A DNA stretch of 64,000 bases from Candidatus Poribacteria bacterium (GTDB lineage Bacteria > Poribacteria > WGA-4E > WGA-3G), in assembly GCA_965209095.1 (NCBI GenBank), contig OZ242381.1, forward strand, positions 4,417,784-4,481,783. The letters are read 5' to 3'. The notes beneath the pieces are model-generated. The model ran no database searches, was not told the origin of the DNA, and was given only the letters and a program-made list of their open reading frames with translations. Position 1 is the stretch's first letter, and each line of letters starts with the position of its first letter. This document shows, in pieces, positions 37,077 through 40,785 of this stretch. The translations under genes and the position numbers were made by a program.

Positions 37077-37553
37077 ATGGTTGTTGATGAAGTTGATTCT
37101 TCCACTTATGTGTCTGAAAGTCCACACCCTGATAAAATCTCGTGGTGTGTGCACCCTTTAGTTGAAAATTGGAAGCGGACGATTTTCTTATTGCTATTTC
37201 TATCTTCAATCCTTGTCATACTCTATATCGGATTCCAGTCAATAGTAATTGTCTTTTTTTCTGCACTACTATTAATAGGTCCTCTCTACAAATACTTCTT
37301 ACCTTTTCATTACCATTGCACTCACGATAGCCTGGTCGTGAAGGCATGCTGCTATAATCTTGAACGGCCGTGGACATCATTCCGCAGCAATTACATAGAC
37401 AAGAATGGTATACTTCTCAGTCCCTTCTCAAAACCGAATCGGCTTGAAAACTTTCGTGGAATTTATATAAGATTCGGAAAACACCCTCCTGAAGAAATCG
37501 TGAACTTTATTCAACATCAACTAAACATGGAGTCTAATGATGAACGCATCTAA
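37077..37553 (+). CDS. Hypothetical membrane protein
   Basis: Two predicted TM helices. No recognisable motif. Confidence 0.3.
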   Translation: MVVDEVDSSTYVSESPHPDKISWCVHPLVENWKRTIFLLLFLSSILVILYIGFQSIVIVFFSALLLIGPLYKYFLPFHYHCTHDSLVVKACCYNLERPWTSFRSNYIDKNGILLSPFSKPNRLENFRGIYIRFGKHPPEEIVNFIQHQLNMESNDERI

Positions 37554-38805
37554 TAACATAGAAACATCAGATCAATTAGCAACTGTCATTTCAGATGTTG
37601 TTGATAATCAAAAAATTCTTGATATACACACACATCTATTCAGTCCTCCCTTTGGAGAACTTTTGTTATGGGGTATTGACGAACTTCTCACCTATCACTA
37701 TCTTATTGCAGAGGTGTTCCGTAAATCAGATGTCTCATATCCAGCATTTTGGGCAATGACAAAGTCTGAACAAGCAGATTTAATTTGGCAAACACTCTTC
37801 ATAGAAAACTCGCCAATCAGTGAAGCATGTCGCGGGGTTGTTACAACATTAGACGCATTAGGTTTAGATGTCAGTTCACGTGCCCTAAAGGAATATCGTA
37901 ACTATTTCGCTGATACGACAGAAACTGATTTCATTGACACAGTATTTGAAAGTTCTAATGTATCTAAAGTCGTTATGACAAATGACCCGTTCGACCCTTT
38001 AGAAGCACCAGTATGGGAATCTGGTGATGTTGGTGATTCACGTTTTGAAGCAGCACTGCGTATGGATGTCCTGATTAACAGCTATGAAGAAACTGCTTAT
38101 GAACACCTCCGGGGCCTCGGTTATGATGTGGATCCGAATCTTTCTACGGAGAAGGGTTATAAAGAAGTCCGACGGTTTTTAGAGATGTGGATTCAGCGGA
38201 TGAATCCAAAATACATGGCTGTTTCACTACCTCCTGAGTTTCAATATCCGGATGATGGTGTGTTGGGTCGTTTGTTTGACAATTGCATTTTACCGATTTC
38301 GCGTGAATTCAATGTGCCATTTGCCTTGATGATTGGTGTCAAACGAGCAGTGAACCCCGAACTCCGAATGGCGGGTGATGGCACGGGGAAAGCAGATTTG
38401 ACGAGTTTGGAAACACTACTCCGAGAGAATCAAGATAATAAATTTCTTGTTACGCTTCTCTCACGAGAAAATCAACATGAATTGTGTGTCATCGGACGAA
38501 AATTCAAAAACTTGATGATATTTGGTTGTTGGTGGTTTATGAACAACCCCAGTATAATTGAAGAGATTACACGAGGAAGGATAGAGTTACTCGGTTTGAG
38601 TGTAATACCACAACATTCGGACGCAAGAATATTGGATCAACTTATCTATAAATGGAAACACTCGCGCAAGATCGTAAAAGATATCTTGATTGAGAAATAT
38701 CAATTTTTAATTGACGTTGGCTGGACTCTTTCAAAATCAGAAATAGAACGCGATGTCCATAACCTATTCGGTGGCAACTTTGAACGGTTTCTGAATGAAG
38801 ATTAA
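37537..38805 (+). CDS. Glucuronate isomerase-like (UxaC family / amidohydrolase superfamily) protein
   Basis: ILDIHTHLFSP...YHYLIAEVFR...KVVMTNDPFDPLE...FEAALRMD parallels UxaC DYHCHL...GDHYKWR...VVCTTDDPIDSLE...FRPD. Confidence 0.45.
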   Translation: MMNASNNIETSDQLATVISDVVDNQKILDIHTHLFSPPFGELLLWGIDELLTYHYLIAEVFRKSDVSYPAFWAMTKSEQADLIWQTLFIENSPISEACRGVVTTLDALGLDVSSRALKEYRNYFADTTETDFIDTVFESSNVSKVVMTNDPFDPLEAPVWESGDVGDSRFEAALRMDVLINSYEETAYEHLRGLGYDVDPNLSTEKGYKEVRRFLEMWIQRMNPKYMAVSLPPEFQYPDDGVLGRLFDNCILPISREFNVPFALMIGVKRAVNPELRMAGDGTGKADLTSLETLLRENQDNKFLVTLLSRENQHELCVIGRKFKNLMIFGCWWFMNNPSIIEEITRGRIELLGLSVIPQHSDARILDQLIYKWKHSRKIVKDILIEKYQFLIDVGWTLSKSEIERDVHNLFGGNFERFLNED

Positions 38806-38817
38806 CGAAGAGGAATC

Positions 38818-39138
38818 ATGCACATTTCTAAACATTTCTTGCTTGATGGAGTTACCTGCATGGATATTGGGTTTATATGGGACGCAGATAAATATCAAGA
38901 GGTGCAAAAGAAACATAAAGTCCAATTTTATGAAGTTGTTTCTGCATTTGATGATAATAATGGATATGATGCCCCTGATCCACAAAGACATCCTGACCGT
39001 TGGATGTTCGTTGGAAAGACTGTAACCAATCGTGTACTAGTTATAATTTATGTTGCAGAAGGTCAAGAAATGCATCGTTTAATTATGGCTTATGAGGCTG
39101 AGGGAGAACTTCTCAATGAATACTACAAAAGAAGTTGA
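38818..39138 (+). CDS. brnT: BrnT-like toxin (DUF497 family)
   Basis: FIWDADKYQEVQKKHKVQFYEVVSAFDD....DRWMFVGKTVTNRVLVIIYVAEGQEMHRLIMAYEAEGELLNEYY matches the BrnT consensus (W-D..K...KHGV.F.E...VF.D...R....G..L.VV.T.R....RIISAR.A...E...Y). Alternative start at 38860. Confidence 0.75.
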   Translation: MHISKHFLLDGVTCMDIGFIWDADKYQEVQKKHKVQFYEVVSAFDDNNGYDAPDPQRHPDRWMFVGKTVTNRVLVIIYVAEGQEMHRLIMAYEAEGELLNEYYKRS

Positions 39139-40477
39139 ATTTGATTATGAGACATACACTCGGGAAAATGCTCCCGATCCGTCACAAATCAGAAGTGGAC
39201 CTGAAGTACATAAAAGACGACGTGAAGCATTCAAAGCACGTTTAATCAATCATAATAACATGGAAATAAAACGTGCAAGAGAGATGCGTCACACTTTTAT
39301 TTCATATTGTCATGAGAATAAATCTCAGGTAGATCGACTTTGTCATGCACTTACTTCAAATGGTGTAACTGTATGGGTCGATTGGAACAATATTACTCCA
39401 GGTATACCTTGGAAGCATGCAATACAACAAGCAATTAATTACGGTGATCTCTTTGTTGCATGCTTCTCAAAAGAATATAACTCTCGTGAAAAGACTTACA
39501 TGAATGAAGAACTTACAATTGCAATTGAGAAGCTTCAACAAAAGCCACATGATAAGATATGGTTCATTCCAGTAAAATTGAACGATTGTGAAATTCCTGC
39601 CATTGATATCGGTGAAGGAGACACTCTAAAAGACCTTGAATATATTAATCTCTATGAAAACTGGGAAACTGGCATTCAACAGATACTTGACATTTTGCCA
39701 ATTAAATCATCGGAAACAACTGAAGATCAGATCATTGTAGATAATGACTGTGTCCTGTTCCGTTCAGTTGACGGGAAGTATTATTTCATACCGTTTCAAG
39801 AGATCCGTTGGGATTCAAAGGAGATTACACTAACACTATCCCCAAATACTGATGAACAAACTGCATTTTTATGTTCTTTGAGAAAAGGAAGGCATGATGT
39901 TCTTGCATTTGCACATTCGGATGATGCAATGTGGGTAAAACCACGGGAAGTAACACAGGTCTCTTGTGAAGGAAAAACTACGTGGGAAGTTATACTCAAT
40001 GAGGATACAACGGGTAAAACATATAAATATAAGCCTGAGAAGTCTTATCTGGATAATATCTCATTAGACCAGATTAGCCTGATGCGGGCAAAACGACTTC
40101 TGCTTGATGAAAAGTTAGAAATAACATCCAAATCATTAGGATACAAAACAGTATTTGATAAAATGTTATTGGAAACACAGATACGTGGTGAACTCTCATC
40201 ACAATATGGAAACAGACTTCAAGCACTCACCTCTCCTATACCAGAAATATATAAACTATACAGAACAAAACCAGAGACATTTATAAAGTTCGCAAGGTTG
40301 ATTTCAATTCTACATTTAAAGTTATCAAATACAATTGAAGATGTAATACAATTAGACTTGAAACTCATAAATCCAATTGAATTACAAGTAAGATTTAAGG
40401 GACGACGATCATGGATTTTTGTAAATGATAACCCTGCTACAATAGAATTTGAAGGTATCTGTTCACTGCCCGATTGA
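39092..40477 (+). CDS. TIR-domain protein with BrnA-like N-terminal leader and unknown C-terminal domain
   Basis: TIR core FISYCHENKSQVDRLCHALTSNGVTVWVDWNNITPGIPW...LFVACFSKEYNSREKTYMNEEL...IWFIPVKL. The N-terminus EFDYETYTRENAPDPSQIRSGPEVHKRRREAFKARL resembles the DUF4415/BrnA leader. The start overlaps the brnT 3' end by 23-47 nt. Confidence 0.7.
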   Translation: MRLRENFSMNTTKEVEFDYETYTRENAPDPSQIRSGPEVHKRRREAFKARLINHNNMEIKRAREMRHTFISYCHENKSQVDRLCHALTSNGVTVWVDWNNITPGIPWKHAIQQAINYGDLFVACFSKEYNSREKTYMNEELTIAIEKLQQKPHDKIWFIPVKLNDCEIPAIDIGEGDTLKDLEYINLYENWETGIQQILDILPIKSSETTEDQIIVDNDCVLFRSVDGKYYFIPFQEIRWDSKEITLTLSPNTDEQTAFLCSLRKGRHDVLAFAHSDDAMWVKPREVTQVSCEGKTTWEVILNEDTTGKTYKYKPEKSYLDNISLDQISLMRAKRLLLDEKLEITSKSLGYKTVFDKMLLETQIRGELSSQYGNRLQALTSPIPEIYKLYRTKPETFIKFARLISILHLKLSNTIEDVIQLDLKLINPIELQVRFKGRRSWIFVNDNPATIEFEGICSLPD

Positions 40478-40500: not shown

Positions 40501-40785
40501 TTAACACCTACATGGTGTTGCATTGCATTTCGGACATCCCTCAACATAAATATTCGCAGCATCTTCAAGTGAAATACCAAGAAGGCTTGCTAAAGTAGAT
40601 AACCAAGCAAACACATCAGCAATCTCTTCCCGCAAACGCTCCTTATCGTGCGGTTCTTTGCGGATCTCCTTTGCTAATTCACCGACCTCTTCAACGAACC
40701 ATGCGAAAGTTAATGGAACACCTCGTTCTGCATCTCTTTTGAAATAGATTGCTTCAATCTGTTGTTGAAATTTTTGAATTGTCAT
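40501..40785 (-). CDS. MazG-like nucleotide pyrophosphohydrolase (small all-alpha NTP-PPase) with C-terminal Cys cluster
   Basis: FAWFVEEVGELAKEIRKEP...REEIADVFAWL is typical of the MazG/HisE-like EExxE/D motif. C-terminal CPKCNATPCRC. RBS GGAGAG upstream. Confidence 0.6.
   Translation of the reverse strand: MTIQKFQQQIEAIYFKRDAERGVPLTFAWFVEEVGELAKEIRKEPHDKERLREEIADVFAWLSTLASLLGISLEDAANIYVEGCPKCNATPCRC

Follow-up and report, generated by a model that had tools for sequence, protein, structure and literature searches.

The window analyzed here, a 64,000-nucleotide stretch of a Candidatus Poribacteria bacterium genome (contig OZ242381.1), carries two overlapping genes on the + strand: brnT, encoding a toxin of the BrnT/DUF497 family, and the gene for a mosaic protein, termed TIR-X here, in which a short leader and a linker precede a TIR domain and a C-terminal domain (C-domain; Table 1). 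The explanation favored for this locus, which we hold at about an even chance, is a composite: a single-protein TIR NADase sensor resembling bSEFIR, with an acquired BrnT that would be docked via an antitoxin-like leader. The open reading frame (ORF) listing placed the two genes at 38818-39138 and 39092-40477. Based on orthologues and Shine-Dalgarno motifs, the starts were corrected to 38860 for brnT (MDIGF..., 92 aa) and 39116 for TIR-X (MNTTKE..., 453 aa); the ATG at 38818, used by the ORF finder for brnT, is unused by orthologues. An earlier sequence-only reading of this DNA had reported that the genes overlap, which stands, though the corrected starts reduce the extent to 23 nt from 47 and the length of BrnT to 92 aa from 106.

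The assignment of the small ORF to BrnT/DUF497 in that reading was borne out. The product matches Pfam BrnT_toxin (PF04365) with 51 bits against a gathering score of 34.5 (E=1.8e-13), spanning model positions 1-74 of 77, and a profile of the orthologues matches PDB 7vd7 'toxin' (E=2.5e-6). The residues known for toxicity in Brucella BrnT are K16, H17, and R72 (PMC13284704). The equivalent of Brucella H17 in the window protein, H19, is invariant in a 58-sequence alignment of this clade with canonical sequences, and R73 (in 'HRLI'), which lines up with R72 of a Klebsiella plasmid BrnT bearing the K16/H17 numbering, is nearly invariant in the same alignment. K18 is present in the window BrnT and varies (K/R/E) among orthologues. 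A tblastn search of the window BrnT against the PLSDB plasmids found no close canonical relative.

The TIR domain and the glutamate noticed in its NEEL stretch were both recovered. TIR-X scores 87.7 bits with Pfam TIR_2 (cut-off, 28; E=1.1e-24; residues 69-199 in the 461-aa reading), and profile matches of the domain in the PDB include the TIRs of Cat1, AbTIR, PdTIR, and Roq1. Glu132 (YMNEEL, numbered on the 453-aa protein) does not vary among the 16 sequences of one alignment (A1), is kept in at least 90% of the 49 sequences of another (A2), and is aligned with the Glu of D-E-L in the TIR NADase Cat1; from the plant TIR motif 'WCLxEL', we take this position to be that of the catalytic NADase glutamate. 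These alignments point to a TIR domain of the NADase type with Glu132 as its putative catalytic residue. More than 300 full-length TIR-X homologues were identified (56-100% identity), and the full-length AlphaFold2 (AF2) model has a pLDDT of 67.6. Fusions of this TIR subtype to repeats occur as well, to TPR in Poribacteria (L002, 58% identical) and to HEAT in Streptomyces (L003, 49%).

The closest relatives of the window BrnT occur elsewhere in Poribacteria genomes (58-65% identity, 94-95 aa) and overlap by 29-32 nt with a downstream partner of 251-312 aa that is not BrnA. These partners are TPR-repeat proteins beginning MNTTEEEEFDYQAYMKDYVPDPDKIHRGPEARQKRREA, and BLASTP of TIR-X against a leader-TPR partner aligns residues 1-38 alone (55% identity, E=7e-12). 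Because the same leader heads TIR-X and the otherwise unrelated TPR partners, it is, as far as these alignments tell, a portable module specific to this BrnT clade, co-occurring with it on two unrelated cargos. The overlap with brnT constrains the first eight leader codons only; residues 9-38 lie outside it and are still conserved, and the leader is nearly invariant within the TIR-X family. It is absent from all 10 non-poribacterial C-domain homologues that were read, which begin directly with the effector domain, and from all five aligned poribacterial TIR + C-domain paralogues of ~400 aa, whose TIR subtype differs from that of TIR-X. In the AF2 model, leader residues 1-27, which are acidic and aromatic, have low confidence, and residues 28-56 are predicted as one basic helix continuing into TIR strand A, with the linker part specific to TIR-X (charge of residues 28-58, +5.9).

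Pairs of BrnT and leader-TPR genes were read on six contigs: L024 (3001-4078), L025, L026, L028, L029, and L030, with two such pairs in tandem on L025 (3001-5282). These modules adjoin Eco57I-type restriction-modification, FRG, PIN, and TIR-TPR genes, and no PADLOC model matched the pairs. The C-terminal tail of the leader-TPR proteins (…FHNDYASVPAFERRHGVKLPADLAAMLTP, L024 3257-4078) is found again at the C-terminus of a TIR-TIR-TPR protein of 987 aa (…FHKVYASITDFEQKTSIQLPADITAMLTPLQV, L002 4422-7385), apparently a terminal motif conserved among the immune-type TPR proteins of Poribacteria. It was also observed that the brnT and TIR-X trees disagree: relative to the window, L014 has a BrnT of 78% identity and a TIR-X of only 59%, and L001 has a BrnT of 60% and a TIR-X of 74%. 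Since the C-terminal half of BrnT in L001 (4745-5020) and L007 (5745-6020), with the pattern …SDEDAP..RLITA[YF]DA…, resembles that of the TPR-linked paralogues (e.g., L024 3001-3285), the sequences suggest gene conversion between modules.

The sequence-only reading had likened the leader to the disordered N-terminus of BrnA/DUF4415 antitoxins and aligned its EAFKARL with BrnA, and this resemblance found no support. Residues 1-67 (the leader region in the 461-aa reading) gave no Pfam match even at the reporting limit of E<=10, an hhalign comparison of a 21-sequence leader profile with five canonical BrnA proteins gave a probability of 0.13% over one aligned column, and a tblastn search of 72,556 PLSDB plasmids with the leader gave a single chance-level match; the leader was therefore rejected as a BrnA homologue. 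The module shared with the TPR partners ends at ...RREA, which leaves FKARL outside it. Leader and BrnA resemble each other only in a short stretch that is acidic and aromatic (F-D-Y-E in the leader, I-D-Y/F-S-D in BrnA). As that reading had also noted, the ribbon-helix-helix is missing from the TIR-X N-terminus: the motif (…RIDADVLxWFKAxGKGYQTRMN…) was not seen in the TIR-X sequence, and no helix-turn-helix, ribbon-helix-helix, or AbrB-type domains were detected in TIR-X or the TPR partners. What survives of the idea of an antitoxin-like leader fused to a TIR protein is that the leader belongs to this BrnT clade, as its TPR partners show, with no BrnA homology detected. The TIR protein does take the antitoxin position, downstream of the toxin gene and overlapping it as BrnA does in five canonical brnTA pairs, and no BrnA-like gene adjoins brnT in the at least 12 loci read (TIR-X and TPR types).

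The C-terminal part, in which no motif had been recognized, proved to be ~250 aa without a Pfam family; the last 258 residues of TIR-X gave no Pfam match even at the reporting limit of E<=10. A C-domain search of 1.84 billion proteins returned 397 cluster representatives (50% identity) at E<=1e-3. The N-terminal partners among 93 members, by Pfam, were TIR_2 (62), SEFIR (32), TIR (15), DUF4062 (6), PNP_UDP_1 (5), CHAT (5), Pycsar-type TIR (4), caspase (3), and guanylate cyclase (3), along with NTase-conflict and deaminase domains in single members. Because these conflict-system effector domains are interchangeable at its N-terminus, the C-domain is predicted to serve in sensing or regulation, common to proteins whose effectors can be swapped. 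Its relatives span many phyla, among them free-living Cyanobacteria and Bacteroidota, plasmids included, in genes of the defense-island type; on annotated plasmids they adjoin NACHT NTPases, or helicase, AAA, and PDDEXK genes, and in the three metagenomic contexts read they are stand-alone genes with no brnT nearby.

The AF2 model of the C-domain (pLDDT 86.7, pTM 0.86) found no solved full-length homologue and weak support only in Foldseek searches. A mimic of a phage tail tube was rejected (TM-score <=0.29, query-normalized, in PDB and BFVD), and the likeness is retained only to describe how a beta-subdomain is folded. The relatives that combine SEFIR with the C-domain are called bSEFIR by PADLOC (E 1e-50 to 1e-79); the closest of these align to positions 35 to 348-367 of the 412-position model, and the C-domain of the closest is 47% identical to that of the window. 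From these long alignments the C-domain was first equated with the bSEFIR C-terminus, which was downgraded after C-domains alone gave no match to the PADLOC bSEFIR model at E<=10. The tie to an experimentally validated defense protein, the Bacillus SEFIR protein, is thus indirect. Elsewhere in the C-domain family, a divergent pair of genes (L023 3005-4650, - strand), one of them for a weak DUF1488 protein, lies beside a cyclase + C-domain gene, and one member of the family carries DUF1488 as a fusion to the C-domain, a hint of another accessory partner. A leaderless 402-aa TIR + C-domain gene (L020) lies in surroundings like those of the BrnT and leader-TPR pairs, whose place it takes, and has an Eco57I-type restriction-modification gene upstream and genes for an FRG-domain protein and a 265-aa protein downstream.

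The locus contexts, obtained mainly from exact-protein look-ups, place TIR-X at the same site in all loci read: gap-tpiA-secG, genes for a 158-aa and a 422-aa protein, brnT where present, TIR-X, and a MazG-like gene on the - strand. The order is kept even where a GFO_IDH_MocA gene is inserted upstream. Identity to the window is 77-91% for the flanking genes, 56-78% for TIR-X, and 60-86% for BrnT, and synonymous sites are saturated between the deeper Poribacteria lineages. The shared site and the saturated synonymous sites indicate that the pair is old and vertically inherited and not a recent islet. The islet-like context proposed earlier, and with it a reading of horizontal transfer, was rejected: GC dips only mildly at the locus (0.33-0.38 against 0.39-0.44), and the poribacterial synteny speaks against recent acquisition. 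All parts of the pair are under purifying selection, with ratios of nonsynonymous to synonymous substitution rates (dN/dS) well below 1 for brnT (0.13-0.29), the leader (0.06-0.13, residues 9-58), the TIR domain (0.07-0.18), and the C-domain (0.09-0.27).

The two genes are conserved as neighbors beyond the window, with brnT present in both deep TIR-X subfamilies (window, L001, L004, L005-7, L011, and L013/14) and the 23-nt overlap identical in L004, L005-7, and L013/14. A further 15 TIR-X clusters were linked to BrnT clusters indirectly, by equal lengths of their longest contigs and not by direct reading. In L008 and L009, brnT is missing and a spacer of ~90-110 nt stands in its place. These spacers share the motif TTCGTTTTAAT upstream of TIR-X (L008 5975-5990, L009 5957-5972), possibly a promoter or regulatory element that serves as a replacement. 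Three TIR-X proteins carry differing scars of in-frame deletions that joined the leader to the first 4-12 codons of BrnT (P0022, MDSGFVWDEEKYRMDTTKESEFDYE; P0024, MDIGFVLKEVEFDYE; P0045, MDIGVEFDYE). Consequently, there were at least five losses of brnT, three of them by in-frame deletion, in lineages that kept TIR-X and the leader, and no locus that keeps brnT without TIR-X was observed. Such an asymmetry, in which the toxin alone is lost, is expected if the downstream protein neutralizes BrnT. The retention of TIR-X without brnT means that TIR-X has its own function; brnT is ancestral in the TIR-X family but dispensable. For the toxin-sensing module suggested earlier, the conserved pairing remains, whereas a dependence of TIR-X on BrnT does not.

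Among the neighboring genes (Table 1), the MazG-like gene named in the sequence-only reading was confirmed; it is convergent with and adjacent to TIR-X in 10 of 10 orthologous loci, and its longest ORF extends to 40836. The genes past MazG vary between loci (cupin, transglutaminase, thiolase, or lactonase), with the adjacency of MazG and TIR-X kept. In some lineages, a few kb downstream of MazG lie IS605-family OrfB/TnpB (Cas12f-like) genes (L005-L007 8849-9685; L013/L014 9053-10705), with a Y1 transposase as well in L013/14, and the downstream synteny breaks at these IS605-family genes. Upstream, the gene for a predicted 158-aa membrane protein overlaps the 422-aa gene, both within 37077-38805 (+ strand). 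A Pfam search of the two proteins was without a match, and the 422-aa protein has a weak glucuronate-isomerase-like NCBIfam match (E=0.004). This protein is 81-91% identical across loci, whether brnT is present or not, is always between secG and the brnT/TIR-X site, and was not found at the paralogous-module loci read; it is probably outside the module. A promoter and terminator scan gave counts not above those of shuffled sequence.

Table 1. Features of the brnT and TIR-X locus, with positions counted within the window
Feature	Position	Strand	Basis
422-aa conserved protein, family unassigned, directly upstream of brnT	37537..38805	+	syntenic anchor
brnT (92-aa BrnT/DUF497-family, RelE-superfamily RNase toxin gene)	38860..39138	+	BrnT_toxin profile; GGAG 10 nt before ATG
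Shine-Dalgarno-like GAGGGAG within brnT, 9 nt 5' of the TIR-X start	39100..39106	+	sequence inspection
Overlap of brnT 3' end and TIR-X 5' end, 23 nt, different frames	39116..39138	+	
TIR-X, 453-aa mosaic: leader, linker helix, TIR domain, C-domain	39116..40477	+	homologues, AF2 model
Leader module, residues 1-38 (MNTTKEVEFDYETYTRENAPDPSQIRSGPEVHKRRREA)	39116..39229	+	shared with TPR partners of BrnT paralogues
Linker, residues 39-58 (FKARLINHNNMEIKRAREMR), basic helix continuation	39230..39289	+	AF2 secondary structure, alignments
TIR domain, residues 59-195	39290..39700	+	Pfam TIR_2, PDB profile matches
Glu132 codon in YMNEEL, putative catalytic glutamate	39509..39511	+	alignments, Cat1 match
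C-domain, residues 205-453, no Pfam family	39728..40474	+	homologue search, AF2 model
MazG-like NTP pyrophosphohydrolase, 94 aa from conserved start	40501..40785	-	Pfam MazG E=3.5e-10

Under the composite reading, TIR-X would be, by analogy, a self-contained immune-type effector, with a C-domain that most likely senses infection or controls oligomerization. In the ancestor of the poribacterial family, TIR-X would have gained brnT upstream together with the 38-residue leader, the cognate element of this BrnT clade, and the two genes would be translated as a coupled pair. The leader, through its acidic-aromatic half and basic helix, would bind and neutralize BrnT, replacing BrnA without a DNA-binding domain. 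Once a trigger acts on the sensor part (the C-domain here, the TPR repeats in the paralogues), the TIR domains would assemble, NAD+ would be depleted, and BrnT would be released, such that the cell takes two growth-arresting hits, NAD+ loss and RNA cleavage. We infer the binding of leader to BrnT, the toxicity of BrnT, the NADase activity, the coupling, and the anti-phage role. A broader version, in which the leader is a portable docking and neutralizing peptide for one BrnT clade and fusions to sensors gate the release of a second effector, is put forward tentatively, as something that could hold but probably does not.

Several observations weigh against the composite reading. The host phylum, Poribacteria, is uncultured, and the pair is inherited vertically at a site flanked by housekeeping genes and not in a mobile defense island. 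The canonical 'ISAR' arginine is replaced by Tyr/Phe in this BrnT clade and the protein is acidic (pI 5.1), so that BrnT, judged on its conserved residues, is likely but not assured to be active as a toxin. To these are added the hhalign result for the leader and the failure of C-domains alone to match the bSEFIR model, both described above. Lastly, the leader is nearly unchanged in lineages without brnT and must therefore have a function without a cis-encoded BrnT or act on paralogous BrnTs in trans; its retention may reflect cross-talk with those paralogues or a second leader role.

The strongest competitor to the composite reading, though a rather unlikely one, is a plain toxin-antitoxin (TA) pair, of the addiction or stress kind, fused to a neighbor. 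The leader would again neutralize BrnT, and the TIR and C-domain would be independent of it, with no signal passing between the two; the TA part would do no more than stabilize the locus or be carried along by it. Gene order and overlap as in brnTA, a leader that moves with BrnT onto different cargos, the persistence of TIR-X under purifying selection without BrnT, and the stand-alone arrangement of the other C-domain proteins with contexts read are all consistent with this view. However, the two cargos seen, TPR arrays and the combination of TIR and C-domain, are the usual building blocks of immune sensors and effectors and not random neighbors, a labile antitoxin fused to a stable 400-aa protein would be an odd design, and conservation of the leader outlasts the loss of brnT.

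It is improbable that the leader is instead an expression or assembly element (coupling, auto-inhibition, or oligomerization) copied along with brnT, leaving BrnT an orphan that is inactive or neutralized in trans. Purifying selection on brnT and its invariant catalytic His argue against this view, as does the need of an active toxin for a neutralizer where no BrnA-like gene is adjacent. In addition, leader residues 9-38 are conserved between two otherwise unrelated partners outside of the overlap. Such an element would nonetheless account for the conservation of the leader where brnT is gone, for the one long predicted helix (residues 28-56) running into the TIR domain, and for the lack of BrnA similarity, and it would sit well with an acidic BrnT that is off consensus at the ISAR arginine. 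The in-frame deletions retain the brnT start codon, which suggests that the initiation region matters.

In sponge symbionts such as Poribacteria, eukaryote-like TIR and TPR proteins are abundant and possibly interfere with host signaling. That the locus encodes such symbiosis factors and not phage defense, as the 'eukaryotic-like' character of TIR and TPR domains and the strict vertical inheritance at one housekeeping-flanked site across Poribacteria might suggest, is very improbable given that free-living bacteria (including on plasmids) have the C-domain fused to caspase, CHAT, PNP, deaminase, and SEFIR domains, and given the restriction-modification, PIN, and FRG genes beside the paralogous modules, the conserved catalytic-type Glu, and the conserved acidic N-terminus of TIR-X, in which no secretion signal is evident by inspection only, a signal-peptide predictor not having been run.

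The composite reading touches on two questions: how TA modules become phage defense and how sensing couples to toxin release. The locus constitutes a natural experiment, in which a partner element of ~38 residues occurs on two immune-type cargos and the toxin has been 'knocked out' repeatedly in nature. Should the leader neutralize BrnT, it would be a new minimal BrnT antitoxin without a DNA-binding domain, and the TIR NADase and the RNase would be dual effectors of one sensor. If the portable-docking version were true, it would represent a plug-in route for recruiting TA toxins into innate-immunity proteins, with the sensor replacing the DNA-binding antitoxin. Independent of BrnT, the analysis delimits a widespread C-domain that is a candidate for an undescribed sensor part of SEFIR-type single-protein defenses.

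The pairing of BrnT with TIR had been thought undescribed, and it was not found in the searchable literature: a full-text search returned no paper joining BrnT or DUF497 with TIR or TPR partners. A 2025 survey of RelE/ParE-superfamily toxins holds BrnT-BrnA pairs and fusions only (PMC11980606). With BrnT/BrnA of Brucella abortus (PF04365/PF14384), the locus shares the toxin family with the catalytic His retained and a toxin gene that comes first, its 3' end overlapped by the partner (23 nt here, 8-41 nt among the five canonical pairs from plasmids). Common to the canonical plasmid BrnA proteins are an acidic motif, IDYSDIPE, and a ribbon-helix-helix at the C-terminus. The partner here, in contrast, is a TIR protein of 453 aa, or a TPR protein for the BrnT paralogues, with only the 38-residue leader in common, without a DUF4415 profile match, and without a ribbon-helix-helix, and since it has no such DNA-binding domain, autoregulation of the BrnA type is not possible. 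The Tyr/Phe at the 'ISAR' arginine is a further difference from canonical BrnT. Compared to type II TA systems in general, a coupled pair is present, but the partner has no detected DNA-binding domain.

The closest precedent comes from BrnT-like RNases encoded directly upstream of RtcR-associated CoCoNuTs, which are type IV restriction-like (eLife 2024, PMC11090510). As in that case, a BrnT-family RNase without BrnA is found here co-directional with, and directly upstream of, a predicted immune system, and some canonical toxicity residues are not conserved in either. The downstream partners of the CoCoNuT BrnTs are McrBC-like or HEPN complexes with no shared leader described, and not a TIR domain with a C-domain.

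Membership of SAVED, APAZ, or Thoeris systems was rejected because the PADLOC matches cover the TIR part only. The ThsB models of Thoeris match weakly (E>=7e-6), and none of the neighbors (BrnT, the MazG-like and 422-aa proteins, cupin, and crotonase) is ThsA-like. TIR-TPR, TIR-HEAT, DSR1/DSR2, and Avs proteins offer an analogy in their N-terminal NAD+-depleting effector and presumed C-terminal infection sensor, but the C-domain of TIR-X is not built of repeats and is not a STAND NTPase, and those proteins lack the N-terminal leader and the overlapping toxin gene. SEFIR is a single-protein anti-phage defense in which NAD+ is depleted via the N-terminal domain (Millman et al. 2022 preprint, 10.1101/2022.05.11.491447; Osterman et al. 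preprint, 10.1101/2024.02.11.579819). Like bSEFIR, TIR-X joins an N-terminal TIR-superfamily domain and a C-terminal domain of ~250 aa in one protein of ~400 aa. Unlike bSEFIR, its effector is a TIR_2 domain (Pfam gives TIR_2 and TIR only), it matches the PADLOC model only locally (27 bits, residues 58-132), and it has the leader and toxin partner that bSEFIR lacks. The finding combines known kinds, type II TA and single-protein TIR/SEFIR defense, rather than being categorically new.

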